Made by a program: the position numbers and the translations under genes. Positions 2,512 through 39,148 of a DNA stretch of 56,808 bases are shown here, in pieces (positions within the stretch are counted from its first letter, which is position 1; the number at the start of each line of letters is the position of its first letter). The notes below the pieces were generated by a model. The model made no database searches. It was not told the DNA's origin and saw nothing but the letters and a program-made list of their open reading frames with translations. Origin of the DNA: Bacteroidota bacterium (GTDB lineage Bacteria > Bacteroidota > Bacteroidia > Bacteroidales > JAADGE01). Location of the stretch: NCBI GenBank assembly GCA_024277895.1, contig JAJRUH010000065.1:1-56808 (forward strand), read 5' to 3'.

Positions 2512-2528
2512 AAAAATTTACCCGAAAC

Positions 2529-2554
2529 AAAACTTTAAATAATAAAATAGTTTT
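2529..2554. promoter_or_regulatory. Second putative TetR operator, AAAACT-N14-AGTTTT
   Basis: Same half-sites and 14-nt spacer as 1852-1877; upstream of tolC. Confidence 0.6.
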
Positions 2555-2606
2555 ATAAGTACAAACATAAAAATAAGAAAATTATACAAACAAATAAAAT
2601 AATAAA

Positions 2607-3917: not shown

Positions 3918-3928
3918 AATCCTATAAA

Positions 3929-4981: not shown

Positions 4982-5019
4982 TATGTAATAAATACTAATA
5001 ATTTATAAAAATAAAAATT

Positions 5020-8000
5020 ATGAGTTTATACAGTACAGCAGTAAAAAAACCGGTCAGTACCGTTATGATATTTATCGGAGTAGTAATATTCGGACTTTAT
5101 TCATATTTACAACTGCCCGTAGATTTTTTCCCTAAAATGGATCCTCCTATAATCTCAATTTTTACTTTCTATCCCGGAGCAGATGCCGAAGACGTTGAAC
5201 AAAATATTACAAAAAAAATTGAAGACAGAATGGGTTCCATTACCAATCTGAAAAAAATATCTTCTTCTTCAAAAGATAACACATCAGTAGTTACACTCGA
5301 ATTTGAATGGGGAGCCAACTTAGATGAAGCAACCAACGAAATTCGTGATGCCGTAGGTATGGCAGAACGATATTTACCTGACGGCGTTGAAAGCCCCACA
5401 ATTTTCAGATTAAACACAAGTATGATACCGGTAATTATGTTTTCGGTAACATCCGACGAAAGCTACGAAGGTATAAAAGACATATTAGAAAATAAAGTTA
5501 TTCAACCGCTTAATCGCATCGAAGGTGTAGGAAATATTATAGAAATAGGTGCACCGGTAAGGGCAATAATGGTAGATGTCGATCCGCGAAAATTAGATGC
5601 ATATAACCTGAGCGTCGAGCAAATCGGCAGTATTTTAGCAGCTGACAATATTAATTTACCTTCAGGAAGTTTGGAAATGGGAAAATCAGATTTCCCGCTT
5701 CGCCTTCAGGGTGAGTTTAAAAACAGTGAAGCAGTTAAAAATATTATTATAAGCAATTTTAACGGAAAACCGGTATATCTCCGAGATATTGCTACTGTTC
5801 GCGACAGTTTAAAAGATATTAATTCTTACGAAAGAGCTAACGGAGGTAAAAATGTCCGCCTGATGGTTCAAAAACAATCAGATGCAAACACCGTTACCGT
5901 TGCAAATAAAATAAAAGAAAAACTTGAAAAAATTAAACCGACATTGCCTTCTGACGTTAAAATAGATGTTCTTATGGATTCATCTCTTAACACTATGTCT
6001 GCAATAAATAATCTGACAGAAACCATAATGTTTGCTCTGTTCTTTGTAATAATTGTTGTCCTCTTTTTTATGGGCAGATGGCGAGCTACTCTTATTGTCT
6101 CCGTTTCAATTCCTATTTCACTTATTGCAGGTTTTATTTATATGTATCTATCTGGCGATACCATAAATATTATAACTCTTTCATCTCTATCAATAGCCAT
6201 AGGTATGGTGGTTGACGATTCTATTGTGGTACTCGAAAATATTACAAAAAAATTAGAAAGAGGCGGCTTTGCCCGAGAATCGGCTATATACGGAACCAAC
6301 GAAGTAAGTCTTGCCGTTATTGCTTCCACAATGACAATTGTAGCAGTTTTTCTTCCCTTAACTATGCTCGGAGGTATGACAGGAATTCTCTTTAAACCGT
6401 TAGGTTGGGTTGTTACTATTTCTATTGTTACTTCGGTTATTGTTTCTCTCACACTTGTTCCCATGTTGTCTTCAAAAATTTTAAGTGTTAAAGAACCAAG
6501 CAAAAAAAGTATCGGCGGAAAACTCTATTATTTTTCTCAGGGGCTCCTGAATAAACTCGACAATTTTTATGCAAAAACGCTTACTTGGGCAATAGCTCAT
6601 CGTTGGTTAGTACTCGGCGGAGCAACAATAATTTTCGTTTCATCCCTTTTCCTTACAAAACTTATCGGTTCCGAATTTATGCCTGCCTCCGATAACGACA
6701 GAATATCGGCACAAGTAAAATTAGCACAAGGTGTTAAATTAGACGAAACCATAAAAACGGCAGAATATTTAGATTCTGTTTTTATGAATAAGAAAAAATA
6801 TCCCGGGATAAATATAGTATCAACAAGTGCCGGTGCCGGCGATGAAAACAGCTTATCATCAATATTTACCGAAACCGGAAATTATATTATCAATTTTACT
6901 TTTGCTATGAAGCAGAGAAAGAATCGTAAAAAAGATATTTTTCAGATTGGAGAAGAAATGCGAAAAGATATTGAAAAATTACCCGAAGCAGAAACATATT
7001 ACGTTGATCCCGGAAGTTCCAGAAAAGCTAAAATGTTGGGAGGAGGAGGAGGAAGTACTATGGAAGTCAAAATATACGGTAATAACTTTAACCAAACCAA
7101 TATAATTGCCGAAAAAATATCTGATGCATTAAAAAATATTAAAGGCACAAAAGATATTTTAATAAGCCGCGATAAAGATAAAGCAGAATTACAATTAGTT
7201 TTAGACCCGCAAAAAATGACTTCTTTCGGTTTAAATACAGCAATGGTTGCAACAGCAATCAGAAACCGAATTACCGGACTTACCGCAACAGTGTACAAAG
7301 AAGACGGCAATGAATATGATGTAATTGTACGTTATGCCGATAAATACAGACACACAACCGAAGATGTAGAAAATATCAGTATTATGACACCTGTGGGGAA
7401 ATTAGTAAAAGTTGGTGAAATAACAAAACTAAAAAGGTTTTATTCACCTCCGAATATTGAGCGTGAAAATAAAGTACGCGTTGTTACTGTTTCATCTGCT
7501 CTTTCCGGCATTGATTTAGGAACATTAAAATCGTTACTTGAAAAAAAGATTGCTGAAATGAATATTCCTAATAATGTCAATATAGAATTTGGCGGCAGCG
7601 TTGAAGATATGCAAGATTCATTCAAAAGCCTGTTTATGCTTATGATATTGATTATACTGTTGGTTTATATCGTTATGGCATCTCAGTTTGAATCCCTGTC
7701 AGAACCTTTTATCATTATGTTCTCTATTCCGTTCGCTTTTACGGGAGTTTTCGCAGCTCTGTATCTTTTTCACACAACTATCAATGTTATTTCAATGATT
7801 GGGGCAATTATGCTGATAGGTATTGTAGTGAAAAACGGTATCGTTTTAGTCGATTATATTAATTTATTGGTTGACAAAGGGTATTCTTTGAAAAAAGCAG
7901 TTATTGCCGGCGGTCGTTCTCGTTTACGCCCTGTTTTAATGACTTCAATAACTACCATTCTCGCTATGTTACCGATGATTTTACTGAAAGGCAGCGGTTC

Positions 8001-8166
8001 TGAAATGTGGCGACCTATGGGTGTTGCCGTATTCGGCGGATTAACATTTTCAACAGTAGTAACTTTAGTCTTAATTCCGACAATTTATACCATCTTCGGA
8101 ATGGGAAAAATCAAAAGAAAAAGAAAAGCAATTGAAAAAACTCAAAAGAATTTAAATGTTCGGTAA
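5020..8166 (+). CDS. RND efflux permease (AcrB/AcrD/AcrF family)
   Basis: 1048 aa; GMVVDDSIVVLENI, GIVVKNGIVLVD, RLRPVLMT. Confidence 0.96.
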   Translation: MSLYSTAVKKPVSTVMIFIGVVIFGLYSYLQLPVDFFPKMDPPIISIFTFYPGADAEDVEQNITKKIEDRMGSITNLKKISSSSKDNTSVVTLEFEWGANLDEATNEIRDAVGMAERYLPDGVESPTIFRLNTSMIPVIMFSVTSDESYEGIKDILENKVIQPLNRIEGVGNIIEIGAPVRAIMVDVDPRKLDAYNLSVEQIGSILAADNINLPSGSLEMGKSDFPLRLQGEFKNSEAVKNIIISNFNGKPVYLRDIATVRDSLKDINSYERANGGKNVRLMVQKQSDANTVTVANKIKEKLEKIKPTLPSDVKIDVLMDSSLNTMSAINNLTETIMFALFFVIIVVLFFMGRWRATLIVSVSIPISLIAGFIYMYLSGDTINIITLSSLSIAIGMVVDDSIVVLENITKKLERGGFARESAIYGTNEVSLAVIASTMTIVAVFLPLTMLGGMTGILFKPLGWVVTISIVTSVIVSLTLVPMLSSKILSVKEPSKKSIGGKLYYFSQGLLNKLDNFYAKTLTWAIAHRWLVLGGATIIFVSSLFLTKLIGSEFMPASDNDRISAQVKLAQGVKLDETIKTAEYLDSVFMNKKKYPGINIVSTSAGAGDENSLSSIFTETGNYIINFTFAMKQRKNRKKDIFQIGEEMRKDIEKLPEAETYYVDPGSSRKAKMLGGGGGSTMEVKIYGNNFNQTNIIAEKISDALKNIKGTKDILISRDKDKAELQLVLDPQKMTSFGLNTAMVATAIRNRITGLTATVYKEDGNEYDVIVRYADKYRHTTEDVENISIMTPVGKLVKVGEITKLKRFYSPPNIERENKVRVVTVSSALSGIDLGTLKSLLEKKIAEMNIPNNVNIEFGGSVEDMQDSFKSLFMLMILIILLVYIVMASQFESLSEPFIIMFSIPFAFTGVFAALYLFHTTINVISMIGAIMLIGIVVKNGIVLVDYINLLVDKGYSLKKAVIAGGRSRLRPVLMTSITTILAMLPMILLKGSGSEMWRPMGVAVFGGLTFSTVVTLVLIPTIYTIFGMGKIKRKRKAIEKTQKNLNVR

Positions 8167-8251
8167 TATACAAATTTCAGTAATTATTAGTTTCTTTGAA
8201 CAGCTTTTTTACAAAAATTTATTTTAAAAATAATTATTAATCTTTATTCTA

Positions 8252-8545
8252 ATGAAAGCAGTATTTATATCATATAACCAGTCAATTAGTTTTGAAGTAC
8301 AACAAATATTAAACGAATTATCCGTTCGCGGTTATACCCAATGGACAGATATTAAAGGAAAAGGTTCTGTAAAAGGCGAACCTCATGAAGGCACTCACAC
8401 TTGGCCCGAATTAAATAATGCACATTTAACCATTGTTGAAGACCAAAAAGTATCTCCCTTGCTTAAAAAACTGAAAATATTAGACTTAAAATCAGAACAA
8501 CAGGGTTTGCGTGCATTTGTATGGAATATTGAAGACAGAATATAA
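8252..8545 (+). CDS. PG0541 family transporter-associated protein (P-II-like)
   Basis: 97 aa with RGYTQW...GKGS..GEPHEGTHTWP and GLRAFVW, directly after the RND permease. Confidence 0.85.
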   Translation: MKAVFISYNQSISFEVQQILNELSVRGYTQWTDIKGKGSVKGEPHEGTHTWPELNNAHLTIVEDQKVSPLLKKLKILDLKSEQQGLRAFVWNIEDRI

Positions 8546-8556
8546 CTAATTTAAAA

Positions 8557-9123
8557 ATGCACAAAAATTTCGACAAAAAGATATTCACGTTTCGTTTGCT
8601 CTTAAACGATTTAGCTTTCCTTATTTCTAATACCGGCAATATATCAGCCGCTATGCACAATAAACAAATAGGCAAAGTATTTATGGAAAAAATAATGTCC
8701 GTAGTTACAGCAGTCAACGATTGCAGATATTGCACATGGTATCACGCCAAACAAGCCGCAGCAAGCGGAATAAGCGAAAAAGAAATAAAAAATATGCTCA
8801 ATTTGCAATTTCATTCGGATGCCTCCGATTTTGAGGTTCCCGCTTTACTTTACGCTCAGCATTATGCCGAAACAAACAGAAATGTTGACAAAGAAATGAC
8901 AAAAAAGTTGATTGATTTCTATGGTGAGAAAACCGCAAAACATATTATTCTGATGATCAGAATGATATTCTTCGGAAATCTTTCAGGTAATACTTTCGAT
9001 GCTTTTATTAGCCGATTAAAAGGGAAAAAAGCCGAAAACAGCAATATAATTTTTGAAGCAGTTTTTTTTCTGTTAAATGCTCCTTTTATGCTTCCTTTAA
9101 TTCCTTTTACAAAAAAAAATTGA
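8557..9123 (+). CDS. AhpD / carboxymuconolactone decarboxylase family protein
   Basis: EKIMSVVTAVNDCRYCTWYH, an AhpD-core CxxC..H motif; hydrophobic C-terminus. Confidence 0.8.
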   Translation: MHKNFDKKIFTFRLLLNDLAFLISNTGNISAAMHNKQIGKVFMEKIMSVVTAVNDCRYCTWYHAKQAAASGISEKEIKNMLNLQFHSDASDFEVPALLYAQHYAETNRNVDKEMTKKLIDFYGEKTAKHIILMIRMIFFGNLSGNTFDAFISRLKGKKAENSNIIFEAVFFLLNAPFMLPLIPFTKKN

Positions 9124-9164
9124 AAAAAATAAGCAAATAATTTCTTCATTGCAGAAACTTGTTA

Positions 9165-9172
9165 TATTTTTG
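9165..9172 (+). promoter_or_regulatory. -7 promoter element (TATTTTTG) for the second tetR operon
   Basis: TANNTTTG 25 nt before ATG 9198. Confidence 0.55.
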
Positions 9173-9197
9173 TACAGAAAAACGAATATAGTCAGTT

Positions 9198-9785
9198 ATG
9201 GTAAATGGTAAAATTGAAAAAACACGTGAGAAAATCTTACAAGTTGCCGATAAATTATTCGGTCACTACGGTTTTTATAAAACATCAATGGATGAAATTG
9301 CAAAAATAGCACGTAAAGCAAAAGGTTCATTATATTATCATTTTGCAAGCAAGGAAGAACTGTTCAAAGAAGTTGTTGCAAAAGAAATTCAAAACTTAAA
9401 ACACGAATTAAACGAAATTGTAAATTCAAATCTTAATGCAAAAGATAAAATTAAAGCATATTTAATTAAACGAATGCAAATTGTTGAAAATGCTTCAAAT
9501 TACCACGAAACACTTAAAGCAGATTTTTATGAACATTTCGATTTTATCGACGGTCTGCGCAATGATTTAGATAACTGGGAAAAAAATAAAACAAGACAAA
9601 TAATTAATGAAGGCATTGAAAACGGTGAATTTGTGGAAATGCAAAATACAAAAGTTATTCTTGATGTTTTCATTATGGTTCTCAAAGGTTTAGAAATACC
9701 GTTCTTTATCCAAGGTAAATATAAAGAATTAGAACCCTATTTCGATGATATGTTGGGAATTTTAATCAGGGGTATATCAAAATAA
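9198..9785 (+). CDS. TetR/AcrR family transcriptional regulator
   Basis: HTH GFYKTSMDEIAKIARKAKGSLYYHFASKEELF. Confidence 0.92.
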   Translation: MVNGKIEKTREKILQVADKLFGHYGFYKTSMDEIAKIARKAKGSLYYHFASKEELFKEVVAKEIQNLKHELNEIVNSNLNAKDKIKAYLIKRMQIVENASNYHETLKADFYEHFDFIDGLRNDLDNWEKNKTRQIINEGIENGEFVEMQNTKVILDVFIMVLKGLEIPFFIQGKYKELEPYFDDMLGILIRGISK

Positions 9786-9840
9786 TTTTGAGGTAAATAT
9801 TAGAATTTACCCTAATAATATTAATTCAAACATAAAAAAG

Positions 9841-10608
9841 ATGAAAGAAAAAATTAAAAGTCTGTTTTTTAAAATTTGGTATTGGTACATTAGTTCTGCA
9901 GATAAAAATGCGGAAGTTATTTTTATGAATTACGGATATTCAAAGGAAAAAGAAGAACTTAAACTTGACGAAAAAGATAAAAAAAACAGATACTCAATAC
10001 AATTATATAACCTTGTCGCCAAAGGAGTTGATATTACAGAAAAAGATTTATTAGAAGTCGGGTGCGGAAGAGGCGGAGGTCTGTCCTATATTAATCAAAA
10101 TTTGTTACCGAAAAATGTTACGGGTATTGATTTGAATAAAAAAGCAATTCAATTTTGCAATAAATTTTATAAAGATACAAATAGTACATTTATACAGGCA
10201 AATGCACAAAAACTGCCTTTTGAAGACAACTCCTTTGATGTTGTATTAAACGTAGAATCATCACATCGCTATCCGCAACCGGAAGTTTTTTTCAAGGAAG
10301 TTTATCGTGTATTAAAACCCGAAGGATACTTTTTATTTGCCGATTTCAGATATGATTATGAAATTGAAGAGACGGAATTACAATTAAAAAAATCCGGTTT
10401 GAAAATTGAAAAGAAACAAGACATCACTCAAAACGTAGTTAAAGCATTAAAATTTGCAACACCCGACAGAGAAATATTAATAAAAAAAATAGTTCCTAAA
10501 TTACTGCAAAATTTAGCCGGACAATTTGCTGCAATTGCAGGAACTCCGACATATAATAAATTTTTAACTCGTAAATTCATTTACTTTAATTATATTTTAA
10601 AAAAATAA
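9841..10608 (+). CDS. Class I SAM-dependent methyltransferase, resembling mycobacterial lipid O-methyltransferases (Rv2952/Fmt type)
   Basis: FMNYGY, NRYSIQLY, LEVGCGRGGG, VLNVESSHRY, RVLKPEGYFLFADFR. Confidence 0.8.
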   Translation: MKEKIKSLFFKIWYWYISSADKNAEVIFMNYGYSKEKEELKLDEKDKKNRYSIQLYNLVAKGVDITEKDLLEVGCGRGGGLSYINQNLLPKNVTGIDLNKKAIQFCNKFYKDTNSTFIQANAQKLPFEDNSFDVVLNVESSHRYPQPEVFFKEVYRVLKPEGYFLFADFRYDYEIEETELQLKKSGLKIEKKQDITQNVVKALKFATPDREILIKKIVPKLLQNLAGQFAAIAGTPTYNKFLTRKFIYFNYILKK

Positions 10609-10634
10609 ATAGTATTTGAAGTAAAATTTCGATA

Positions 10635-11756
10635 ATGAAAATAACAATAAAAGAAATATCAAGCAAAAATGACCTGCGGGAATTTGTTAAATTTCCCGAT
10701 AAATTATATTCCGACAATATTTACTACATTCCGGCAATACATAAATCAGAATTTAATACACTTAACAAAAATCAAAATCCTGCATTTGAATTTTGTGAAG
10801 CAAAATATTGGCTTGCATATATTAATAATAAAATTGTCGGGAGAATAGCCGGTATAATAAACCATAACTATAATAAAAAAGTTAATAAAAACTATGTACG
10901 CTTCGGATGGTTAGATTTTATTGAAAACAAAAGAGTTCTTCAAAAACTGATTCAAGCTGTTGAAACTTGGGGAAAACAAAATAATGCAGAATTCATCAGC
11001 GGTCCGCTCGGATTTTCATCTTTCGATGCTTCAGGTATATTGATTGAAGGATATAATGAACTGCCCACATCTTTCGGTCATTATAACTTTCCTTACTATC
11101 CTGAATTAATAGAATCATTAGGCTATAAGAAAGATATAGATTGGATTGAATTCAATGTGAAAGTACCAAAATCGGTACCCGAAAATTTTGTCAGAATAAC
11201 TGATATATTAAAAACTAAATATAAACTTCATATTGCTGAACTTAAGAATAAAAAAAGTTTATTAAAATATTCAGACGAAATTTTTAAGCTGTTAAATGAA
11301 GAATATAAAGATCTTTATGCATTTTCACAACTATCTGACAAACAGATTACTGTATTAAAAAAACAATTTATTTCATTTTTAAATCCTGAGTATGTATCAA
11401 TTATTTTAAATAACGAAAATAAAATAATTGCATTCGGAATTACAATACCTTCACTCTCAAAAGCATTACAAAAAGCCAAAGGCAAACTTTTCCCTTTCGG
11501 CTTTATAAGAATAATGTTTGCTTTACGAAAAAATGATACCGCTGATACATTACTCATCGCAATTAAAAAGGACTTCAGAAACAAAGGAGTTCATACAATT
11601 ATCTTTAATGAAATTTTTAAAACCTTTGTTAAAAAAGGAATTACAAATCTTGAAACAACACGAGAATTAGAAAACAATTTTAAAGTACAACAACTTTGGA
11701 GCAGATTTGAGCACAGACAACATAAAAGAGCACGATGTTATATTAAAAAAATATAA
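10635..11756 (+). CDS. YghO-like double-GNAT N-acyltransferase (bacterial ceramide synthase family)
   Basis: NPAFEFCE, GRIAGIIN, RFGWLDF, GPLGFSSFD.SGILIEG, YNFPYYP, KDIDWIE, GKLFPFG. Confidence 0.75.
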   Translation: MKITIKEISSKNDLREFVKFPDKLYSDNIYYIPAIHKSEFNTLNKNQNPAFEFCEAKYWLAYINNKIVGRIAGIINHNYNKKVNKNYVRFGWLDFIENKRVLQKLIQAVETWGKQNNAEFISGPLGFSSFDASGILIEGYNELPTSFGHYNFPYYPELIESLGYKKDIDWIEFNVKVPKSVPENFVRITDILKTKYKLHIAELKNKKSLLKYSDEIFKLLNEEYKDLYAFSQLSDKQITVLKKQFISFLNPEYVSIILNNENKIIAFGITIPSLSKALQKAKGKLFPFGFIRIMFALRKNDTADTLLIAIKKDFRNKGVHTIIFNEIFKTFVKKGITNLETTRELENNFKVQQLWSRFEHRQHKRARCYIKKI

Positions 11757-11758
11757 TT

Positions 11759-12685
11759 ATGAAAAGTATAAAAAAACTATTTACTGATAACAGCATAATA
11801 AACAAAAATTTATTAAAGCAATACAATATTAAGTTGCCAAAAATCAAGAACCGCGAAAAAGTAATACAAGGCGGAAAAAAATTTAAAGGTAAAGTAGTAA
11901 TTATTACCGGAGCATCATCAGGTATAGGAAAATCCTGTGCCTTTGAATTTGCAAAACAAGGTGCAAAAGTTGTTTTGGCAGCACGCAGAGAAAATAAATT
12001 AAAAGAAATTGAAACTGAAATCAAACAACAAGGCGGAGATACATTTGTTGTAAAAACAGATGTCAAAAAAATTGAAGATTGCAAAAATTTAATTAAACAA
12101 ACTGCTGAACATTACGGAAAAATTGATATTCTGATAAATAATGCCGGTATTTCAATGAGAGCAACTTTTGAAGATTTGGATTTATCCGTAATAAAAGAAT
12201 TAATGGATACAAATTTCTATGGTGCAGTATATTGCACAAAATTTGCCCTGCCCTTTTTATTAAAACAAAAAGGAACAGTAATCGGAATCTCCTCAATTAC
12301 CGGTTTAACACCTTTACCCGGAAGAACAGGATATAGTGCCTCAAAACATGCAATGGACGGATTTTTAAATACTCTTCGTCTGGAAAATTTTAAAAAAGGA
12401 CTTAATGTATTAATAGTTCATCCCGGTTTTACAAGTTCCGATATCAGAAATACGGCATTGAATAAAAACGGATTACCGCAAAAAGAGTCTCCGAGAGATG
12501 AAGAAAAAATGATGTCTTCCGAAAGAGTAGCACAAATTATTGCAAAAGCTGCCTATAAACGCGAAAGAGACTTAATTCTTACAAACCAGGGAAAACTTGT
12601 TGTCTGGTTACATAAAAATTTTCCGAGCATAACAGATCGTATCATTATAAACGAAATGGCAAAAGAATCGAACCCGCAGGATTAG
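11759..12685 (+). CDS. Short-chain dehydrogenase/reductase (classical SDR, probably NADP(H))
   Basis: TGASSGIG, AARR, INNAG, catalytic YSASK; about 40-aa N-terminal extension. Confidence 0.9.
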   Translation: MKSIKKLFTDNSIINKNLLKQYNIKLPKIKNREKVIQGGKKFKGKVVIITGASSGIGKSCAFEFAKQGAKVVLAARRENKLKEIETEIKQQGGDTFVVKTDVKKIEDCKNLIKQTAEHYGKIDILINNAGISMRATFEDLDLSVIKELMDTNFYGAVYCTKFALPFLLKQKGTVIGISSITGLTPLPGRTGYSASKHAMDGFLNTLRLENFKKGLNVLIVHPGFTSSDIRNTALNKNGLPQKESPRDEEKMMSSERVAQIIAKAAYKRERDLILTNQGKLVVWLHKNFPSITDRIIINEMAKESNPQD

Positions 12686-12749
12686 ATATTTTTTTTATAA
12701 AAACTGACTTTTAAACAATATTAGTTCAAACCAAGTAAATTTAAACAAA

Positions 12750-15002
12750 ATGAAGAGAATTGCAGAAGCAACGATAAAACTGAGATGGCTGATTATAGCA
12801 ATTGTTACAGTTTTAACCGTATTTTTCGCTTATCAGTTAAAAAACATAACCATTAATTCAGATCTTATCAGTTCATTACCCGATGATGACCCTACGGCAT
12901 TGTTATATAAAAATATCGGAAAAGAATTCGGAGGAAATGATATGGGAATGATAGTGTTGGAAACAGATAACATATTTAAAACCAAAGTTCTGGAAGATAT
13001 AAAACAAATTAGCGACACCTTAAAATACACAGAAGGAATTTCAACCGTAACAAGTTTAACCGATATCATCAACATAAAAAATTCTGACGAAGGAATTGAA
13101 ATCGGAAAACTCATTGATGAATATGAATTACCGACTACACAACCGGAATTAGACAGTTTGAAAAATTATGTGCTTTCAAAAGAAATGTACAAAGGAGCCA
13201 TTGTTTCTGCAGACGGAACTTCTGCCATAGTTATGTTTACTATACTTAACAATACTGATGTTCAGCTAATTGCAAAAAACATAAGAAAAAAAATACAGGC
13301 AATGAACCTGACTGAAAAAATATATTTCGGCGGACTTCCGATGATGATGAATGACATTTCCGATTTAATTATTTCTGATATTATTTGGCTTTTACCCGTT
13401 GTATTTTTACTCATAGCTTTTATACTTTTTCTCAGCTTTAAATCTGTAAGAGGCGTTATTTTACCACTTCTGACTGCCGGAATTTCCGTAATTTGGACAC
13501 TCGGAATAATGGTTCTGTCCGGTTATCAATTAACAATGATTTCCAATCAAATTCCTATTATTTTATTGGCTGTTGGAAGTGCTTATGCAATTCACGTAAT
13601 AAACCGCATTAATCAATGTAAAGAAACCGACAGAAAAAAAGCCGTTATTAAAGCTCTTTCATATATAATAGTTCCGGTAGTACTTGCTGCTGTTACGACC
13701 TCAATCGGTTTTATATCTTTTGTTTTCGGAGCTTATTTAACAATGATAAAAGATTTCGGAATTTTTACTTCTCTCGGAACTCTTTTCGCATTATTACTTG
13801 CAATATTTTTTGTTCCTGCAGTAATTGCAGCCTTTTCAATGTATAAAAAGAAAAAAGAAATCAATGAAAATAAGAAACAAGACTTATTAACAGAAAAATT
13901 TCTTAAACCTCTTGTAAATCTCCTGTTTAAACACCCTAAATATACGCTTACAGCTTGGAGTCTTCTGTTAATATTAAGTATCGGCGGAATGTTTTTAATT
14001 AAAACAAGTGTCAATATGGAAGACTATTTTAAGAAAGGCAATCCTACAAGAGTTTCCGAAGATATATTAAAAGCAAAATTCGGAGGTTCGCAACCTGTTT
14101 TTGTTGTATTCAAAGGCGATATGCAAAATCCTGAAGTATTAAAAACAATGATAAAAACAGAAAAGTATATGAAACAATTTCCGGATATTACAACCACACA
14201 ATCCGTTGCAGACCTTATTGAACAAATGAATGATGTAATGGGCGAAGGAAAGAAAATACCCGATGAACAGGCAAAAATTGAGCAGCTCTGGTTCTTATTG
14301 GATGGACAAGATATTATGTCCCAATTAGTTTCGGAAAATTTAGATAAAGGTATCATACAATCAAAATTTGCATCGAACGACACCAAAGCAATGTCGGATT
14401 TTGTAAAATATATGAATAAATTTATTTCAGAAAATTCAACCGAAAAATGTAAAATTGAAGTTACAGGAATGCCCTCCGTTTACGTAAAAATGAATACAAG
14501 CCTTTTATACAGCCAATTCAGCAGTTTAATAATTGCAATTTTGCTTGTTCTTATTATAGTCGGTTCAATATTAAAATCTCCGATGAAAGGTGTTTATGCA
14601 ATTATCCCGATTATAGCGACAATCTTAATTCTATTCGGATTTATGGGCTTTGCAGGAATTTCTTTAGATATTGCAACAGTGCTTGTAGCAAGCATCGCAC
14701 TCGGTATCGGTATTGACTATTCCATTCACGTTATCACACATTTTAATCACAACTTAAAAGCAACAAATGATGTAAACAAAGCATTGGAAGAAACTATCTT
14801 GGTCAGCGGAAAAGCAATTGTGATAAATGTAATATCGGTTGCCGCAGGTTTCCTTGTGTTACTCTTTTCTCAGATGGTACCCTTACAAAATTTCGGATTA
14901 CTGGTCGCTCTGAGTATGTTCGGTTCAGGTATTGGTGCATTAACATTATTACCTGTTATACTGATACTTGTAAACAGAAAAAGAAAAATAACAGCAAAAT
15001 AA
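12750..15002 (+). CDS. MMPL/RND superfamily lipid transporter
   Basis: 750 aa with two repeats of a periplasmic domain plus TM bundle; GSAYAIH and GIGIDYSIH motifs. Confidence 0.9.
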   Translation: MKRIAEATIKLRWLIIAIVTVLTVFFAYQLKNITINSDLISSLPDDDPTALLYKNIGKEFGGNDMGMIVLETDNIFKTKVLEDIKQISDTLKYTEGISTVTSLTDIINIKNSDEGIEIGKLIDEYELPTTQPELDSLKNYVLSKEMYKGAIVSADGTSAIVMFTILNNTDVQLIAKNIRKKIQAMNLTEKIYFGGLPMMMNDISDLIISDIIWLLPVVFLLIAFILFLSFKSVRGVILPLLTAGISVIWTLGIMVLSGYQLTMISNQIPIILLAVGSAYAIHVINRINQCKETDRKKAVIKALSYIIVPVVLAAVTTSIGFISFVFGAYLTMIKDFGIFTSLGTLFALLLAIFFVPAVIAAFSMYKKKKEINENKKQDLLTEKFLKPLVNLLFKHPKYTLTAWSLLLILSIGGMFLIKTSVNMEDYFKKGNPTRVSEDILKAKFGGSQPVFVVFKGDMQNPEVLKTMIKTEKYMKQFPDITTTQSVADLIEQMNDVMGEGKKIPDEQAKIEQLWFLLDGQDIMSQLVSENLDKGIIQSKFASNDTKAMSDFVKYMNKFISENSTEKCKIEVTGMPSVYVKMNTSLLYSQFSSLIIAILLVLIIVGSILKSPMKGVYAIIPIIATILILFGFMGFAGISLDIATVLVASIALGIGIDYSIHVITHFNHNLKATNDVNKALEETILVSGKAIVINVISVAAGFLVLLFSQMVPLQNFGLLVALSMFGSGIGALTLLPVILILVNRKRKITAK

Positions 15003-15003
15003 A

Positions 15004-15807
15004 ATGAAGTACATAAATATAGAAGATATTATAAAAAACAGCAATTCTGAACTGTTGAAAGGTTTACCTCCGATCGTTATTAAAATATTAACAAAAATAG
15101 TCAGACAAAACGGAATAAACCATATCATTAATAAATATTCAAACTATGAAGGTGTTGCTTTTTTACCCAAAGTAATAGAAGAACTCAACCTTAAAATTAA
15201 GATAAAAGGAAAAGAAAATTTGCCTGAAAACGGAAGATGCTTTTTCGTTGCAAACCATCCTTTCGGTTTAATTGACGGAATAATACTTACAAATACGATA
15301 GGAGAAAAATACGGTAAATTAAAAGCCGTCGGTAATGATGCATTCAAATATATACCTAACTTAAAACCGATAATTGCAAATGTCAATTCTTTTGGCCAAT
15401 GTTCAAGAGAATATATTACCGAATTAGAAAAAGTATATGCTTCAGATTTCCCGATTACACATTTTCCTGCCGGTGTTGTATCGCGAATTAAAAACAGAAA
15501 AGTTCAAGACAAAAATTGGGAAAAAAGTTTTATTAAAAAAGCGATTACAAATCAAAGAAATATTGTTCCGATTAAATTTTCAGGCAGAAATTCAAACCTG
15601 TTTTATGCTGTTTATTTTTTCAGACAAATATTTAATATCAAGACAGATATTGAATTAATATTATTACCGAGAGAAATGTTCAGAAAACGTAATAAAACGA
15701 TTAAGGTCATAATAGGAAAACCAATTTCTTATAAAGTCTTTGATAAAACCTTATCTCATACAGAATGGGCACAAAAAATAAGAAGCCAAGTATATAAATT
15801 AAATTAA
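15004..15807 (+). CDS. PlsC-fold acyltransferase, similar to Bacteroidetes GlsA-type O-acyltransferases
   Basis: NHPFGLIDG (HxxxxD), FPAGVVSR, WEKSFIKKA, GRNSNLFY, LPREMF, GKPISY. Confidence 0.8.
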   Translation: MKYINIEDIIKNSNSELLKGLPPIVIKILTKIVRQNGINHIINKYSNYEGVAFLPKVIEELNLKIKIKGKENLPENGRCFFVANHPFGLIDGIILTNTIGEKYGKLKAVGNDAFKYIPNLKPIIANVNSFGQCSREYITELEKVYASDFPITHFPAGVVSRIKNRKVQDKNWEKSFIKKAITNQRNIVPIKFSGRNSNLFYAVYFFRQIFNIKTDIELILLPREMFRKRNKTIKVIIGKPISYKVFDKTLSHTEWAQKIRSQVYKLN

Positions 15808-15830
15808 TAACATTTAAAATCTCAACAAAA

Positions 15831-16565
15831 ATGAAAACAATTAAATTAGCAGTTTTAGTAAGTGCATTAGTCCTTACAACAGGGTTTACTGCCAATGCAC
15901 AAGATGCAAATACCATCTTACAAAAAGTAGACAATATTATGTATTCGCCAAAAGACATGACCGGCAAATTGGAAATCATTTTAATTAATAAAGCAGGAAA
16001 ACAAAGTATAAGAAAAGCCCTAATAATGCAAAAAGGTGCAGACAAACGTATTTTTCGTTTTACGGCACCTGCGTCACAGGCAGGTATAGCCACACTTTCA
16101 TTGCCTAATAACGTAATGTATTTATATATGCCGGCTTTCGGAAAAGAACGTCGTATTTCATCTTCGGTAAAATCCTCGAAGTTTGCAGGCACCGATTTTG
16201 CTTACGAAGATATGGAAGCAGTAAAATATACCGAAAAATATACGGCAAAATTGTTAAAACCCGAAGGAAACAACTATGTTTTGGAATTAAAGCCCAAATC
16301 CCCCGGATCGTCTTATTCAAAATTAATTCTTAAAGTAAATAAAACAAATTATTATCCTACTTATACCGAATTTTACGATAAAGGAAATCATAAAGTAAAA
16401 ACAGCCGAATACACTTTCAAAAAAATAGGAAAATACTGGAATGCACAAGAAATTATAATGAAAGATTTAAAGAAAAATCATACTACAAAAATGATTTCTT
16501 CAAATGTAAAATATGATACCGGTTTAAGTGATGATGAATTTACCGTAAGAAAATTAAAAATGTAA
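15831..16565 (+). CDS. Outer membrane lipoprotein-sorting protein (LolA-like carrier)
   Basis: Signal peptide; F.APASQAGIATL, LYMPAFGKERRI, FAGTDFAYED. Confidence 0.85.
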   Translation: MKTIKLAVLVSALVLTTGFTANAQDANTILQKVDNIMYSPKDMTGKLEIILINKAGKQSIRKALIMQKGADKRIFRFTAPASQAGIATLSLPNNVMYLYMPAFGKERRISSSVKSSKFAGTDFAYEDMEAVKYTEKYTAKLLKPEGNNYVLELKPKSPGSSYSKLILKVNKTNYYPTYTEFYDKGNHKVKTAEYTFKKIGKYWNAQEIIMKDLKKNHTTKMISSNVKYDTGLSDDEFTVRKLKM

Positions 16566-16640
16566 TAAACTCATATAAGCTCAACTGCGTCATTCTGTTT
16601 TAATTTTATTTAAAAACTCAATAACTAAAAATTTAAAAAA

Positions 16641-18023
16641 ATGAAAGTTTCAAAATTAATACCTGCGGTAATGCTTATATTGTTTATAAGCATAAATGTC
16701 GTGAAAGCACAAGATGACACCGGCAAATTAATACTGTCCGGTGAATTACTTACAGATCAGCGTTTTCTCTTGAAAAACGATAACGATTGGGCTTGGAACG
16801 AAAACCGATTAACATTTAAATCCTATAAAAAAATTACGGAAAATTCTAAATTTTATTCCGAAATTTGGTTAAGAAATATCGGTTTGCCGAATATAAATAC
16901 TTCTGCCGACTTATATAATAAAGGAATTACAGACCCTTACAATTTGGAAATCAGAGAAGCTTATGTGCAATTATACGGTTTTTTAAGTAAAAATTTAGAT
17001 GTGAAAATCGGTCGCCAACGTATAGCTTGGGGAACTGCCGATGAGTTAAATCCTACGGATAATTTAAACCCTTACGACTTAGAAGACATTTTGGATTTCG
17101 GTCGCCACAGAGGTTCGGATGCAGTCAGTTTTAATTATTATTTTAATTCCGATTTTTCGTTACAGGGTGTATATATTCCGCTTTTTCAACCGGCAAATAT
17201 GCCCGTCGGCATTTTCGCAAACGTCTTAAATCCGACCGTAGAGCTGCCGCAAGGATTAACATTAAAAGACTTTTCTGATCAAATTAATATGCCTAAATAC
17301 AATTTAGCCGAAAGTTCTGTGGCAGGTGTAAAATTTAAGGGCTTTGCAGCCGGTTTCGATTTCTCGTTAAGCTATGTTTGGGGTCGCGACGGTTTGCCGG
17401 TTTCAACATATAATACGATTATTCCTGTTGATATGACAGGCGGAGTAAATATTCATTCCGATTTATCGTTTTACAGAACACACATTTTCGGTGCCGATTT
17501 GGCGGGAAGCGTAGGCGGTATCGGAGTATGGGCGGAAGCTGCTGCTTTTTTACCTGAAAATAACGTAAATATGACAACCGATTTATCGGCACTTTATCCT
17601 ATGTCTCCTGTTCCGGTAACTGTTGACACTACAATCCTTAAAAAAGAAGTTTACCTGAAATTCATTCTCGGAGCCGATTATAATTTCGCTGACGGTTCAT
17701 ATCTTAATTTTCAGTATTTACACGGTTTTATTAACGAAAGAGGAAATGATAATTTAAATGATTATTTCTTTATTCGTTTTCAAAAGAAGTTTTTTGAAGA
17801 TAAATTATCAATAGCACCCTTAAGCGGAGGCTTTATAGTTTCCGATTGGAATGATGTGAAAAATAATTATGCAATTATTTATGTTCCTGAAATTTCATAT
17901 ATGGCAACCGATAATGCGGAAATTACACTGTCCTCAGCAATTTTTGACGGAAAAGGCACAAATATATTTGCAAATTTAAAAGACTATAATATGCTTATGC
18001 TGAAATTCAAATACAGTTTTTAA
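16641..18023 (+). CDS. Outer-membrane beta-barrel (DUF1302-like)
   Basis: Signal peptide; IREAYVQL, KIGRQRIAWGTADELNPTD; C-terminal aromatic FKYSF. Confidence 0.7.
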   Translation: MKVSKLIPAVMLILFISINVVKAQDDTGKLILSGELLTDQRFLLKNDNDWAWNENRLTFKSYKKITENSKFYSEIWLRNIGLPNINTSADLYNKGITDPYNLEIREAYVQLYGFLSKNLDVKIGRQRIAWGTADELNPTDNLNPYDLEDILDFGRHRGSDAVSFNYYFNSDFSLQGVYIPLFQPANMPVGIFANVLNPTVELPQGLTLKDFSDQINMPKYNLAESSVAGVKFKGFAAGFDFSLSYVWGRDGLPVSTYNTIIPVDMTGGVNIHSDLSFYRTHIFGADLAGSVGGIGVWAEAAAFLPENNVNMTTDLSALYPMSPVPVTVDTTILKKEVYLKFILGADYNFADGSYLNFQYLHGFINERGNDNLNDYFFIRFQKKFFEDKLSIAPLSGGFIVSDWNDVKNNYAIIYVPEISYMATDNAEITLSSAIFDGKGTNIFANLKDYNMLMLKFKYSF

Positions 18024-18067
18024 ACAGTTCTAATCAACAATTAACGCCCTCATAATCAAGATGTTTT

Positions 18068-18099
18068 AAGCCGTGTTGTATTTTTACAATGCGGTTTTT
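18068..18099. terminator. Intrinsic terminator between convergent genes
   Basis: Stem CCGTGTTGTA/TACAATGCGG followed by a T run. Confidence 0.65.
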
Positions 18100-18128
18100 A
18101 TATCGCAAAATTCAGTATCAATTTGTTA

Positions 18129-19754
18129 TTATTTATTGTTCGTTATTAAGCTCTTTTTCCCGTCAACATAATCGGCAAACTGCTTAAAAACTTTCTTATT
18201 TTCTTTTTTTAAAATCATAAGACTTGTATTTAAAGCCGATTTTACTGCTATCAGCACACCTCCGCCCAAATCCGCCCAATGTCCGCTTTGCAGTAAATTT
18301 TTTACGGGTGTTTTATAAGAAGCAACTTTATTCATAATATTTTCTTTTCCCGGTTTTTGTCCCATCATCGTTCCGTTTTTATTCAGAGTATATCGATAAT
18401 AGGTAATCGGAGTTGCTACATCATAAAACAAAATATGTTCTTTTAAATTCGGAATTAATTTTTCCTGAATGCGATTAATCAAAATTTCTGCAAATTCATG
18501 TTTCAGCTTTTTGTATGCTTTGTTGCGCAGAAAATTTCCGTTTGAATCTTTTTCACATTCCCAATAATTATTTTGTTCCATAGAAGCAGGAATAAAAATA
18601 TTCAAAGTTCCTTTTCCTTCCGGAACAAGTGTTTTATCTCTTAACGAAGGTGCCGAAATATGAATTCCGCTTTTATGCGGGTTGCCTCCGCTTAAATCTT
18701 TCCGGTTTACCGAAGCATCAAAAAAATAGATATTTTCCGTACCTATTCCCAGCTTTTCTGCCGGACAATTTAACGCAACCGAAACAGTTACTGCAGAGCT
18801 GTATATTTCCGCATTCTTCAATTTGCTTTTCTTTTTTTCGGAAACAGCATTATCGGGAAGCAGTTTGTTATATAACTCACCTAAATCGCTTGCCGAGACA
18901 ATATATTTGCACCTCACTTCTTTAATTCCGTTTTTCGTAAGAACCCTAACACCTGAAACTTCATTTTTTTCAACAATAATTTTCGTAACTTTAGAATTTA
19001 AGAACACCTCTCCGCCTCTTTCTTTCGTTTTCGCCGATAACCACTGCGGATATGCACGACTTCCGCCTTTCGGAGGCGTTTGAAAATTGTCGGAATAAGC
19101 CCAGGCAACCGGAACCAAACAGGATAGTAAATCATTTTCAGCACCGAAAATATTTTGCAATACTTGTGATTTTGAATATTTTTTTAATCCTTTCTCCACT
19201 CCTTCATCTCCGGTATATTTTATATGCGGAATAAATGCAAAAGCAAATTTCAGCATTTTTAATCCGTATATAATTTTTCCGAATAAGCTGCGTGTTTCAA
19301 CTGAACGCCCGAGATATACATAATCATTAAAAGATTTTGAAATACGCCCGGCATCTCTGAAAAAATTATTAATCCCTTTTTTCTCATCAGGAAATTTTGA
19401 AATAAGATTTTCTTTTAATTTATCAGGATTATTTGTGAGAAGATAATCGGAATTTTCAGCAGCAAATCTGCGAATTTCTGTTTGACTTTCTGCTTTCGGA
19501 TAATCTTCTCCTATAATTTTAAAAATATTACTTACAAACCCTTGCTCTCCGCAATCGTTCAACCAATGAATCGCCGTATCGAATTTATATCCTTTTCTGT
19601 CAAATCCTGCCAGATAACCTCCGACTTTTTCACTCATTTCAAAAACACAGCACGACAATCCGGCTTTGCTCAATAATGACGAAGAAGTTAAACCGCTGAT
19701 ACCTCCGCCGATAATTACAACATCATAATATGCTTTAGGGTTTATTTCTTTCAT
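18129..19754 (-). CDS. Phytoene desaturase/retinol saturase-like FAD-dependent oxidoreductase
   Basis: IIGGGISG, GGYLAGFDRKGYKFD, DVATPITYYRYT, KTPVKNL..SGHW..GGGV; start placed at ATG 19754 (ORF track uses 19766). Confidence 0.85.
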   Translation of the reverse strand: MKEINPKAYYDVVIIGGGISGLTSSSLLSKAGLSCCVFEMSEKVGGYLAGFDRKGYKFDTAIHWLNDCGEQGFVSNIFKIIGEDYPKAESQTEIRRFAAENSDYLLTNNPDKLKENLISKFPDEKKGINNFFRDAGRISKSFNDYVYLGRSVETRSLFGKIIYGLKMLKFAFAFIPHIKYTGDEGVEKGLKKYSKSQVLQNIFGAENDLLSCLVPVAWAYSDNFQTPPKGGSRAYPQWLSAKTKERGGEVFLNSKVTKIIVEKNEVSGVRVLTKNGIKEVRCKYIVSASDLGELYNKLLPDNAVSEKKKSKLKNAEIYSSAVTVSVALNCPAEKLGIGTENIYFFDASVNRKDLSGGNPHKSGIHISAPSLRDKTLVPEGKGTLNIFIPASMEQNNYWECEKDSNGNFLRNKAYKKLKHEFAEILINRIQEKLIPNLKEHILFYDVATPITYYRYTLNKNGTMMGQKPGKENIMNKVASYKTPVKNLLQSGHWADLGGGVLIAVKSALNTSLMILKKENKKVFKQFADYVDGKKSLITNNK

Positions 19755-19917
19755 ATTCGTCTGCAAGATAAAAAGTTTAGATTAAACTTGATATTTTATT
19801 TCCCTATTCGGATATTATCAGGAAATAATTCAAATTAAATTTAAAAAAATTATCCGACAAACTGTTCAATCAGTTATTTTAATATATTTGTACAAATAAA
19901 AATATAAAGTTTCTATT

Positions 19918-20892
19918 ATGTTAGTCCATTTTTTAAAATTAATCAGAATAAAAAATCTTATAATTATCGCAGCCACACAATATTTAATGCGCTATGCGGT
20001 TATTTTTCCGATTTTAGAATCACGAGGATACAAATCACAATTCAGTGATTTTAATTTCTTTCTGTTAGTTTTAACAACAATTCTTCTTGCAGCGGCAGGA
20101 TATGCCATTAATGATTATTTTGATACTAAAACCGACTTAATCAATCGTCCGGAAACGGTTGTTGTGGGAAAACATATCAACCGTCGACATGTTATGACTT
20201 TACATATTATTTTTAATACTGTTGCGATAATATTAGGTTTTTACATTTCTTATCAAATTCATCTTTGGAAACTTCTTTATATTTATATCATTATTACAGG
20301 TTTACTTTGGTTTTATTCGACTTCTTATAAAAAACAATTTCTTATAGGAAATATAATAATTGCATTTTTAACGGCTATGGTTCCGTTAATGACAGTTTTA
20401 TATGAAATTCCGCCGCTTAACAAAGAATATTTTGACACCTTGCTTGAACTGAAAGACAATTTTAATGATTTATTCTTTTGGGTTACGGGTTTTTCGGCTT
20501 TTGCCTTTATTACAATATTAAATCGAGAAATTATAAAAGACGTTGAAGATTTTGAAGGAGATGCTGCCTACGGCAGCAGAACAATGCCGGTGGTTGCCGG
20601 AATTAAAACATCAAAAATTGTTACTGTTTCGTTAAGTATTATAACAATAGCTTTATTAGTTTTTATTTACATTAAATATTTGATGTATCCTTGTTCAAGT
20701 TGCATTACAATTGACTATATATCAGCAATATACTTGAGCCTATTTGTTGTATTTCCGTCCTTAATAATGATGTATCTGATTATTAATGCTAAAGATAAAA
20801 AAGATTGGCATCGAGCAAGCACTTTATCAAAAATTATTATGCTTTTCGGGATATTGTATGCTCTGATTGTGTGGTATAATTTTACACATTAA
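19918..20892 (+). CDS. UbiA family prenyltransferase (DGGGP synthase-like)
   Basis: AGYAINDYFDTKTDLINRP and REIIKDVEDFEGD aspartate-rich motifs; multiple TM segments; TATATTTG promoter at 19883-19890. Confidence 0.88.
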   Translation: MLVHFLKLIRIKNLIIIAATQYLMRYAVIFPILESRGYKSQFSDFNFFLLVLTTILLAAAGYAINDYFDTKTDLINRPETVVVGKHINRRHVMTLHIIFNTVAIILGFYISYQIHLWKLLYIYIIITGLLWFYSTSYKKQFLIGNIIIAFLTAMVPLMTVLYEIPPLNKEYFDTLLELKDNFNDLFFWVTGFSAFAFITILNREIIKDVEDFEGDAAYGSRTMPVVAGIKTSKIVTVSLSIITIALLVFIYIKYLMYPCSSCITIDYISAIYLSLFVVFPSLIMMYLIINAKDKKDWHRASTLSKIIMLFGILYALIVWYNFTH

Positions 20893-38902: not shown

Positions 38903-39148
38903 ATGGAATTATCAATAATACAAATAGGAAATTCAAAAGGATTCAGGCTTTCAAAAACCTTGATTGAGAAATATAATATCAAAGACAAGGTTGAACTTAT
39001 TCTTGAAAAGGAATATTTGATTTTAAAACCTATTTCAAGTCCGAGGAAAGGTTGGGAAACAGCATTTAAGGAAATGAATGAAAAAGGAGATGACCAACTA
39101 TTATTCAATGACGTTTTTAAAAATGAGAGCTTGGAAGAATGGAATTAA
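38903..39148 (+). CDS. AbrB/MazE family antitoxin
   Basis: IIQIGNSKGFRLSK, PRKGWE, acidic C-terminus; overlaps the toxin start. Confidence 0.9.
   Translation: MELSIIQIGNSKGFRLSKTLIEKYNIKDKVELILEKEYLILKPISSPRKGWETAFKEMNEKGDDQLLFNDVFKNESLEEWN

Follow-up and report, generated by a model that had tools for sequence, protein, structure and literature searches.

What does an operon make when it joins a relative of the bacterial ceramide synthase to an envelope lipid transporter, and where does the product go? The question is raised by positions 9198-18023 of a 56,808-nucleotide stretch of Bacteroidota DNA (the window; contig C42 of a source genome of 3.19 Mb that is 95.7% complete). A reading made from the letters of the window, here called the sequence-only reading, had proposed an amide-linked, sphingolipid-like lipid with its own dedicated export. 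We retain the amide-linked, sphingolipid-like part of that proposal; the export is not strictly dedicated, and the long-chain base is probably capnine. Our analysis indicates that the operon probably makes a membrane lipid that resembles ceramide and most likely contains sulfur, and moves it to the cell surface. We infer the chemical steps, the substrate and the direction of transport from what the genomes display directly: gene content, homology, paralogy, modularity, co-occurrence and adjacency. Below, G000 is the source genome, C denotes its contigs, L related loci and G sampled genomes.

Two conserved lipid modules are combined in the operon behind a single TetR regulator. Module A reads TetR-(methyltransferase)-GNAT-SDR, where SDR stands for short-chain dehydrogenase/reductase, and module B reads MMPL-(O-acyltransferase)-LolA-like-DUF1302 barrel. 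The features are as follows, with genes typed by Pfam and NCBIfam profile searches.

9198-9785, plus strand: TetR-family regulator at the operon head (PF00440, TetR_N, 58 bits; TetR_C_5, 23.1 bits).
9841-10608, plus strand: S-adenosylmethionine-dependent methyltransferase, Rv2952/Mtf2-like, an accessory of module A (Methyltransf_11, 92 bits).
10635-11756, plus strand: putative tandem-GNAT N-acyltransferase of the YghO type, 373 amino acids (aa), by tree position a paralogue of the bacterial ceramide synthase, bCerS ('GNAT2' clade; weak Acetyltransf_1 and Acetyltransf_7 matches, one per half).
11759-12685, plus strand: classical SDR ('SDRw'), candidate reductase of a 3-keto long-chain base such as 3-ketocapnine (adh_short, 193.5 bits; PRK06181, 329 bits).
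12750-15002, plus strand: MMPL/HAE3-type resistance-nodulation-division (RND) inner-membrane transporter, module B (PF03176, 182.4 bits; TIGR00921, 304.4 bits).
15004-15807, plus strand: GlsA-family lyso-aminolipid O-acyltransferase paralogue inside module B (PF19576, Acyltransf_2, 168.3 bits; NF053697, 287.4 bits).
15831-16565, plus strand: LolA_like periplasmic carrier with a signal peptide (PF17131, 166.7 bits).
16641-18023, plus strand: DUF1302-like outer-membrane beta-barrel (PF06980, 32.1 bits; cut-off 23.2).
18068-18097, plus strand: hairpin terminator between convergent genes (13-bp stem, U-rich tail).
9156-9197, no strand assigned: imperfect inverted repeat 5' of the TetR gene, a weak candidate operator (13-nt arms, 77% complementary).

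The operon is real, and the sequence-only reading typed its genes correctly. Eight open reading frames, all on the plus strand, follow one another with gaps of 55, 26, 2, 64, 1, 23 and 75 bp, in agreement with the eight co-oriented genes and 1-75 bp gaps that it had described, and the TetR gene stands at the head as it had said. Its title named the right gene set in a slightly different order; the true order is TetR, methyltransferase, GNAT, SDR, MMPL, GlsA-like, LolA-like and barrel. The single closing terminator that it had noticed was recovered by folding positions 18024-18128, which gave a hairpin of -20 kcal/mol (z = -3.55; 1 of 200 shuffles equally stable), and was seen only in this way, a scan for consensus terminators having listed nothing after 18023. 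Beyond the hairpin, a gene on the minus strand (18129-19766) converges on the operon. A second weak inverted repeat (9781-9822; 18-nt arms, 78%) lies between the TetR and methyltransferase genes. In another metagenome-assembled genome, locus L018 repeats the order TetR-methyltransferase-GNAT-SDR-MMPL-GlsA-like-LolA-like at 66-82% identity, which rules out chance and misassembly as the source of the arrangement. TetR genes with 61-88% identity stand ahead of the same genes in L015, L018, L023 and L028.

The window GNAT is a YghO-type double-GNAT protein of the bCerS family, two assignments of the sequence-only reading that survive closer comparison. It aligns with Escherichia coli YghO at 26% identity over 376 aa (E 9e-45), end to end in hhalign with 100% probability, and so has full-length homology to the tandem-GNAT architecture of about 370-390 aa found in the bCerS/YghO family. 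Members of this family sit between serine palmitoyltransferase (Spt) and CerR-type reductases in several phyla. In an AlphaFold2 (AF2) model built on a 41-row alignment (pLDDT 91.6), the closest PDB folds are the tandem GNATs 5kf1, 7q3a, 2wpw and MshD, with N-myristoyltransferases ranking lower. Names were of little help: a PDB sequence search gave no match at E <= 10, the clusters from the ESM Atlas were labelled just 'N-acetyltransferase', apart from one odd name given automatically, and the family is large (6560 proteins at E <= 0.001 among 8000 candidates), with no functional name among the 120 matches listed.

Three family GNATs are encoded in the source genome: the window copy, a copy on C11 that is 49% identical to it and a copy on C9 that is 24% identical. 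On C11 the order is Spt, then GNAT, then an epimerase-type CerR-like reductase, and this Spt scores 606 bits against NF047600 and has a solved Spt as its top PDB match (475 bits). The C11 region as a whole (L009, 1837-19557) is a complete inositol-phosphoceramide locus. It is headed by its own TetR and an exporter trio (MMPL, LolA_like, DUF1302) paralogous to that of the window, with a 300-aa gene of no assigned family between the LolA_like and DUF1302 genes. A BT1523-like PIP synthase, MIPS, PgpA, GtrA, DUF5686, Spt, the bCerS-type GNAT, the CerR-like reductase, DUF4833, PAP2_3 (phosphoinositol-dihydroceramide-synthase-like) and a lipid kinase complete it.

We placed the window copy in a quick IQ-TREE phylogeny of 84 GNATs from 77 related loci, some with two copies, plus the two own copies. 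The loci were fetched by peptide patterns of the window GNAT, and the sample is thus biased toward its relatives. The window GNAT falls in a 21-row clade (SH-aLRT 100, stem 0.56) and the C11 GNAT in a separate 22-row clade (SH-aLRT 100) whose neighbours are Spt, CerR, MIPS and PAP2, while Spt/CerR-linked GNATs of Pseudomonadota and Spirochaetota lie outside both, with only 82-89 support at the deeper nodes. In this tree the bCerS family was recognized through Spt/CerR neighbourhoods rather than from the characterized bCerS proteins, CCNA_01212 and BF9343_4218. On this phylogeny, the window GNAT clade is a paralogous branch within the bCerS family. It departs from the bCerS clade and the Spt/CerR-linked outgroups at five positions that those groups conserve (S102L, M/L130F, E133S, Y241L and Y245F), a pattern compatible, as speculation, with an altered head-group pocket.

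The window has neither Spt nor CerR, and the Spt/reductase linkage of the family is accordingly missing at the window GNAT. Members of its clade occur in three settings. In the first, they form TetR-methyltransferase-GNAT-SDR, in the window and in L015, L016, L018 and L023, or the same without the methyltransferase, in L017, L028 and the first copy of L032. In the second, which accounts for 6 of 21 rows (L024-L027, L031 and the second copy of L032), the GNAT follows Spt and a KdsR-like SDR, with profile scores of 676 and 649 bits for Spt (NF047600, cut-off 640) and 321 bits for the SDR (NF049977). In the third, it adjoins the transporter only (L019-L021). Because some clade members follow Spt and a KdsR-like SDR, this enzyme type would act on long-chain bases.

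Which base it meets in the source genome is suggested by the alpha-oxoamine synthases, of which there are three: Spt on C11, Kbl on C22 (686 bits) and a cysteate fatty-acyltransferase (CFAT) on C86. The C86 enzyme scores 557 and 555 bits against the solved CFAT and SulA and 249 against Spt. The sequence-only reading was right that the window holds no Spt; the gene lies on C11 with its own bCerS, CerR and exporter trio. The search that it had recommended for spt, glsB and a second cerS elsewhere in the genome finds Spt and the bCerS-type GNAT on C11 and a glsB-glsA pair on C117. The CFAT gene belongs to a capnine-type cluster (L092, C86, 246-11605) together with a cysteate-synthase-like PALP protein, a YdfG-like SDR, a Na/sulfate-symporter-like protein, CysN/CysD-like proteins of sulfate activation and a glyoxalase-fold protein. 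Of all proteins of the genome, this PALP protein scores highest against the cysteate synthase model TIGR03844 (120.5 bits, below cut-off).

We then asked how these genes are distributed in a sample of 201 genomes of the order, in which family GNATs were called at E <= 1e-30. CFAT is found in 152 genomes, Spt in 60 and a family GNAT in 132. All 60 Spt-positive genomes have a family GNAT, and so do 72 Spt-negative ones, 64 of which are CFAT-positive. Among the other genomes with the window GNAT type (21, made up of the 19 genomes of the related loci, G197 and the borderline G022), CFAT is present in all 21 and Spt in 11. The isolate Marinilabilia salmonicolor is one of those with CFAT in which no Spt was found; its locus L028 has the order TetR-MMPL-LolA-like-GNAT-SDR-PlsC-like-patatin-GT2-barrel. 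The 14 genomes with a window-type MMPL are all CFAT-positive, and two of them have Spt. The C9-type GNAT, a divergent YghO-family paralogue with no Pfam match (L010, C9, 184-1353, minus strand), has orthologues in 89 of the 201 genomes, 84 of these 89 being CFAT-positive, and is another candidate capnine N-acyltransferase.

The SDR, which starts 2 bp 3' of the GNAT gene, shows the same leaning. It exceeds the PRK06181 cut-off (329 against 215 bits). We rejected its assignment as KdsR, as it reaches 120.9 bits against the NF049977 cut-off of 400, where the SDR beside Spt in L026 scores 321. SDRw orthologues (46-68% identity) occur in 111 of the 201 genomes, and CFAT is present in 106 of these 111 compared to 46 of the 90 genomes without SDRw, an odds ratio of 20; for a control SDR from C86 the figure is 117 of 143, an odds ratio of 3. 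SDRw directly adjoins CFAT in G006, G011, G124 and G152, which represent three families, and adjoins family GNATs in G115, G164, G022 and G197; in G076, CFAT abuts a family GNAT. In a phylum-wide sample outside the order, 12 of 15 SDRw-positive genomes are CFAT-positive. We read the base as most likely capnine because SDRw and the GNAT type track or adjoin CFAT rather than Spt, and on these genomic associations the evidence favours a sulfonolipid over a serine-derived ceramide.

The remaining genes of the operon would finish and move this lipid. The MMPL protein matches PF03176 in two stretches and the HAE3 model TIGR00921 over its full length, at 304.4 bits against a cut-off of 351.9, and the DUF1302 match of the barrel is above the gathering score over part of the model only. 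An AF2 model of the barrel (pLDDT 70) is all-beta, and its top Foldseek matches are OmpF/OmpC porins (E 1e-12, TM 0.42-0.55). These domain matches and the porin-like model agree with the MMPL, LolA-like and barrel parts as first described. The N-terminus of the LolA-like protein, MKTIKLAVLVSALVLTTGFTANAQ, has no lipobox Cys, and its signal peptide was judged by eye. The genome has a third LolA_like gene in a different setting (L013, C176, 3938-11317), with a DUF1295/steroid-reductase-like gene, three MacB/FtsX-type permeases, an ABC ATPase and a 397-aa protein weakly similar to the DUF1302 barrel.

The acyltransferase between the MMPL and LolA-like genes was called GlsA-like from the sequence, and indeed exceeds the cut-off of the GlsA equivalog model NF053697 (287.4 against 260 bits). 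It is one of four proteins of the source genome to do so; the other three score 315.6, 287.3 and 262.9 bits. The canonical glsB-glsA pair is on C117 (469.6 and 315.6 bits), where GlsB adjoins the GlsA copy, and the operon gene has no GlsB-type partner beside it. The GlsA-like gene belongs to module B: L018 has one at the same cassette position, and L026, L028, L133, L134 and L143 have a PlsC-like acyltransferase in the cassette in its place. Elsewhere in the source genome (L012, C25, 4663-7712), the two other Acyltransf_2 genes that pass the GlsA cut-off (287.3 and 262.9 bits) stand in tandem, followed by an amidohydrolase gene and with no GlsB-type gene near them.

The methyltransferase had been read as Rv2952/Fmt-type. 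Its nearest models are indeed the Rv2952-type NF045823 (235.7 bits, cut-off 300) and Mtf2 NF045825 (214.5 bits, cut-off 400), although it falls below both curated cut-offs; the next model is far lower, at 60 bits. The gene is found only beside the closest GNAT relatives (L015, L016, L018 and L023, 4 of 19 loci).

Taken together, the operon is best read as a variant of sphingolipid-type synthesis coupled to an envelope lipid exporter, and the data lean toward a sulfonolipid. In this model, the base would be supplied from elsewhere in the genome, most likely as capnine through the C86 CFAT cluster, leading to a sulfonolipid, and less likely as sphinganine from the single Spt on C11. The SDR would reduce the 3-keto group of the long-chain base, either before or after N-acylation. 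The GNAT would N-acylate the amino group, as bCerS does, from a fatty acyl thioester, probably 3-hydroxyacyl. The GlsA-family enzyme could then place an acyl ester on the 3-hydroxyl of the amide-linked chain, in the manner of GlsA on lyso-glycine lipid, and the methyltransferase may add an O-methyl group to the lipid. The MMPL pump, the LolA-like carrier and the barrel would hand the lipid on from the inner membrane, by way of the periplasm, to the outer membrane, with TetR perhaps sensing a lipid ligand. We give roughly an even chance to this combination, in which module A finishes an amide lipid on a base that is preferably capnine and module B esterifies and exports it. A more specific version is tentative and, in our judgement, more apt to fail than to hold: the GNAT-SDR pair would be the missing dedicated late part of sulfonolipid synthesis, a bCerS paralogue retuned for capnine with its cognate 3-ketocapnine reductase, and the trio with its O-acyltransferase would be the first identified route of sulfonolipid-type lipids to the outer membrane, the C11 sister trio doing the same for sphingolipids.

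Several observations weigh against this model. CFAT is common in the order, and its presence in 21 of 21 genomes with the window GNAT type is thus only a mild enrichment; moreover, the co-occurrence counts ignore phylogeny. The six window-clade rows directly 3' of a true Spt and a KdsR-like SDR mean that the clade is not sulfonolipid-specific. Among the 121 genomes with CFAT and without Spt, 57 have no family GNAT, and 23 still have none after the C9 type is added, so that capnine N-acylation there, if any, is independent of the window GNAT enzyme. For the same counts we rejected the window GNAT as a general capnine N-acyltransferase. G129, a genome of the same genus that is 99% complete, has CFAT (82% identical) and lacks a family GNAT, Spt, an SDRw orthologue and a window-type MMPL, and both the sphingolipid locus and the window operon are thus variable within the genus.

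The SDR draws similar objections. Outside the order, 40 of 52 CFAT-positive genomes have no SDRw orthologue, and no SDRw-CFAT adjacency was seen in the phylum sample; we rejected SDRw as a universal 3-ketocapnine reductase on this count and on the lack of an orthologue in 46 of 152 CFAT-positive genomes of the order. The C86 cluster has its own YdfG-like SDR, and published 3-ketocapnine reductases are, in the available part of the source, promiscuous, with several unclustered SDRs per genome (PMC11211663). The tailoring and export genes also separate from the rest. In L015, the closest relative (91%), the SDR gene leads straight into the CrtI-like, UbiA and Maf genes that the window also has, the four module-B genes being missing; a window-type MMPL was not found at E <= 1e-100 in the L015 genome or in four others with the GNAT-SDR pair, two of which are 98-99% complete. 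Module A thus stands alone in at least five genomes, and module B does so in 12 of the 13 other sampled genomes with the MMPL, all without the window GNAT type. Finally, we know of no methylated sulfonolipid.

The first alternative keeps the biosynthetic role and changes the base, as the sequence-only reading had suggested. The GNAT would be a second ceramide synthase acting on Spt-derived 3-ketosphinganine or sphinganine, with the SDR as 3-keto reductase, the GlsA-like enzyme and the methyltransferase tailoring an O-acyl or O-methyl ceramide and the trio exporting it. The 49% identity of the GNAT to its Spt-adjacent C11 paralogue fits this well, as do the window-clade loci wired to Spt and a KdsR-like SDR (L024-L027, L031 and L032). 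No protein of the genome exceeds the KdsR cut-off, the highest score (120.9 bits) being that of the window SDR; the C11 trio shows that such trios accompany sphingolipid genes. However, a full Spt-bCerS-CerR set is present in the genome already, together with an exporter of its own, no Spt was found in 10 of the 21 other genomes with the window GNAT type, and SDRw occurs mostly without Spt (88 of 111 SDRw-positive genomes), as does the window-type MMPL (12 of 14 genomes). We consider this second ceramide route doubtful.

The capnine-based model also assumes that the two modules serve one product, and the alternative is mere juxtaposition, in which module B would be a general cassette for the efflux or remodelling of hydrophobes or lipids, AmeABCD-like and with its own acyltransferase, unrelated to the product of module A. 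A window-type MMPL (at least 56% identity) is present in only 14 of the 201 genomes, and only the source genome and G165 among these also carry the window GNAT type; half of the 14 have no family GNAT at all. In fetched loci a LolA-like gene always adjoins these MMPL orthologues, and the stand-alone cassette reads TetR-(PlsC-like)-MMPL-LolA-like-(patatin, GT2)-barrel(-CDP-alcohol transferase). L134, L135, L138 and L142 are such lone cassettes, with their own TetR, with patatin, PlsC-like, GT2 or CDP-alcohol transferase genes and with no GNAT, and L015 provides the converse case of module A without module B. The HAE3 plus DUF1302 system AmeABCD confers monoterpene tolerance, according to the available part of PMC6394551.

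Against juxtaposition, genes of the window-type MMPL, LolA-like protein or barrel (at least 50% identity) adjoin the GNAT in 9 of 19 related loci despite the rarity of the MMPL; of the ten other loci, five end too soon for a judgement. In the window a single TetR gene and a single terminator enclose the two modules, with gaps of at most 75 bp, and the cassette is always found with genes for lipid acyltransferases or lipases, a sign that its substrate is an endogenous lipid. The sequence-only reading had staked its proposal on co-conservation of the enzymes with the MMPL triad; this turns out to be recurrent but facultative, as each module also occurs alone. Unrelated modules seem improbable to us on this balance. 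Larger versions of the cluster are found in other Bacteroidales at L026 (2148-13338), L032 (1-14904) and L028 (875-10288), which add UppS, FabH-like KAS III, PlsC-like acyltransferase, patatin lipase, CDP-alcohol phosphatidyltransferase, GtrA and GT2 genes around the GNAT and exporter; the added genes suggest phospho- or glyco-headgroup variants.

A non-sphingoid amide lipid, with the GNAT N-acylating an amino acid or small amine in the style of glycine or ornithine lipids and the GlsA-like enzyme O-acylating the 3-hydroxyacyl chain, would suit the GlsA equivalog score and an aminolipid-rich genome (glsBA, an OlsF-like gene and two further Acyltransf_2 genes), but is very improbable, as the known N-acyltransferases of such lipids (GlsB/OlsB) are Acetyltransf_5 proteins rather than YghO-type tandem GNATs and every informative neighbourhood of the GNAT family involves Spt, CFAT or their reductases.

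The operon can be compared with several known systems. The bacterial ceramide pathway, Spt-bCerS-CerR, is known from Caulobacter crescentus and has homologues in Bacteroides. The operon shares with it the GNAT family and the pairing of an N-acyltransferase with a 3-keto reductase, but differs in having no Spt or epimerase-type CerR adjoining, in its separate paralogue clade with five substitutions, in its classical SDR and in associations that lean to CFAT. With the sulfonolipid pathway (cysteate synthase, CFAT/CapB/SulA, CapC/KCR) it shares the presence of CFAT in the genome and an SDR that co-occurs with and sometimes adjoins CFAT. The operon would add O-acylation, methylation and export, none of which is in the described pathway, and whereas the published reductases are scattered and promiscuous, the role proposed for the operon SDR rests on its genomic association with CFAT.

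The acyltransferase resembles GlsA of the GlsB/GlsA system of Bacteroides thetaiotaomicron (compare OlsF) in passing the GlsA cut-off and presumably in esterifying an amide-linked 3-hydroxyacyl chain, but sits between MMPL and LolA-like genes with no GlsB-type neighbour. Module B is comparable to AmeABCD of Castellaniella defragrans, the HAE3-DUF1302-DUF1329-propeller cassettes and the HpnN hopanoid transporter, as far as the available part of PMC6394551 describes them: it joins an RND pump, which matches the HAE3 model below cut-off, to a periplasmic protein of the LolA superfamily and an outer-membrane DUF1302 protein. It differs in having three components, with neither a COG4447 propeller nor DUF1329 and with a PF17131 LolA_like protein as carrier, and it sits among lipid acyltransferases, its substrate presumably being an endogenous lipid rather than a monoterpene. 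The combination of an MMPL pump with a methyltransferase whose best model is Rv2952-type recalls the tailoring and export of mycobacterial phthiocerol dimycocerosate (Rv2952, MmpL7); with a methyltransferase at 235.7 bits against a cut-off of 300 and no polyketide genes, the resemblance is one of parts only.

The sulfonolipids and sphingolipids of Bacteroidota are outer-membrane lipids. In the portions of the literature available to us, they are linked to gliding motility, host immune signalling and the development of choanoflagellates; no protein is named there that would carry either class across the envelope in Bacteroidota. For Caulobacter, second Lpt components have been proposed for sphingolipid transport in the available part of PMC11324152, and HAE3/DUF1302 cassettes have been characterized, in that of PMC6394551, only as AmeABCD. 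The enzymes of the sulfonolipid pathway named in the accessible text are cysteate synthase, CFAT/CapB/SulA and CapC/KCR, N-acylation being described there without a named enzyme (PMC10191378, PMC11211663, PMC11525784, PMC9304779); GlsA is described as esterifying the 3-hydroxyl of the amide-linked chain of lyso-glycine lipid (PMC10191378). Literature searches combining sulfonolipid with ceramide synthase and capnine with N-acyltransferase found no assignment of the N-acylation step, and searches for MMPL with sulfonolipid, sphingolipid or Bacteroid terms gave no 'MMPL' among the matches listed. Published bCerS homologue lists, in supplements outside these searches, may already include the window clade. 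We also considered whether the 'Acsulfono-1-deoxyceramides' of a Black Sea study are O-acyl sulfonolipids and rejected this, as 'ac' denotes acetyl.

The operon and its relatives provide testable candidates for an N-acyltransferase, its cognate reductase and an export machine, and M. salmonicolor is a cultured carrier. In addition, as 72 of the 132 carriers of a bCerS-family gene have no Spt, using such genes as sphingolipid markers would over-call production.

Three features of the window lie outside the operon. Directly 5' of it, at 1912-9123, is a separate TetR-OEP-HlyD-AcrB-type RND efflux operon, which also carries a PG0541-family transporter-associated protein and an AhpD/CMD-like gene. 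On its other side, the convergent gene (18129-19766, minus strand) encodes a CrtI/carotenoid-isomerase-like FAD oxidoreductase and adjoins a UbiA prenyltransferase gene (19918-20892, plus strand) whose top NCBIfam models are of the geranylgeranylglycerol-phosphate type (PRK12872 models; 236 and 211 bits, each short of its cut-off). The pair recalls archaeal ether-lipid genes, here in a genome of Bacteroidota. Farther downstream, at 39139-39462 on the plus strand, is an open reading frame of 107 aa for a PemK/MazF-type toxin (Pfam, 97.4 bits).

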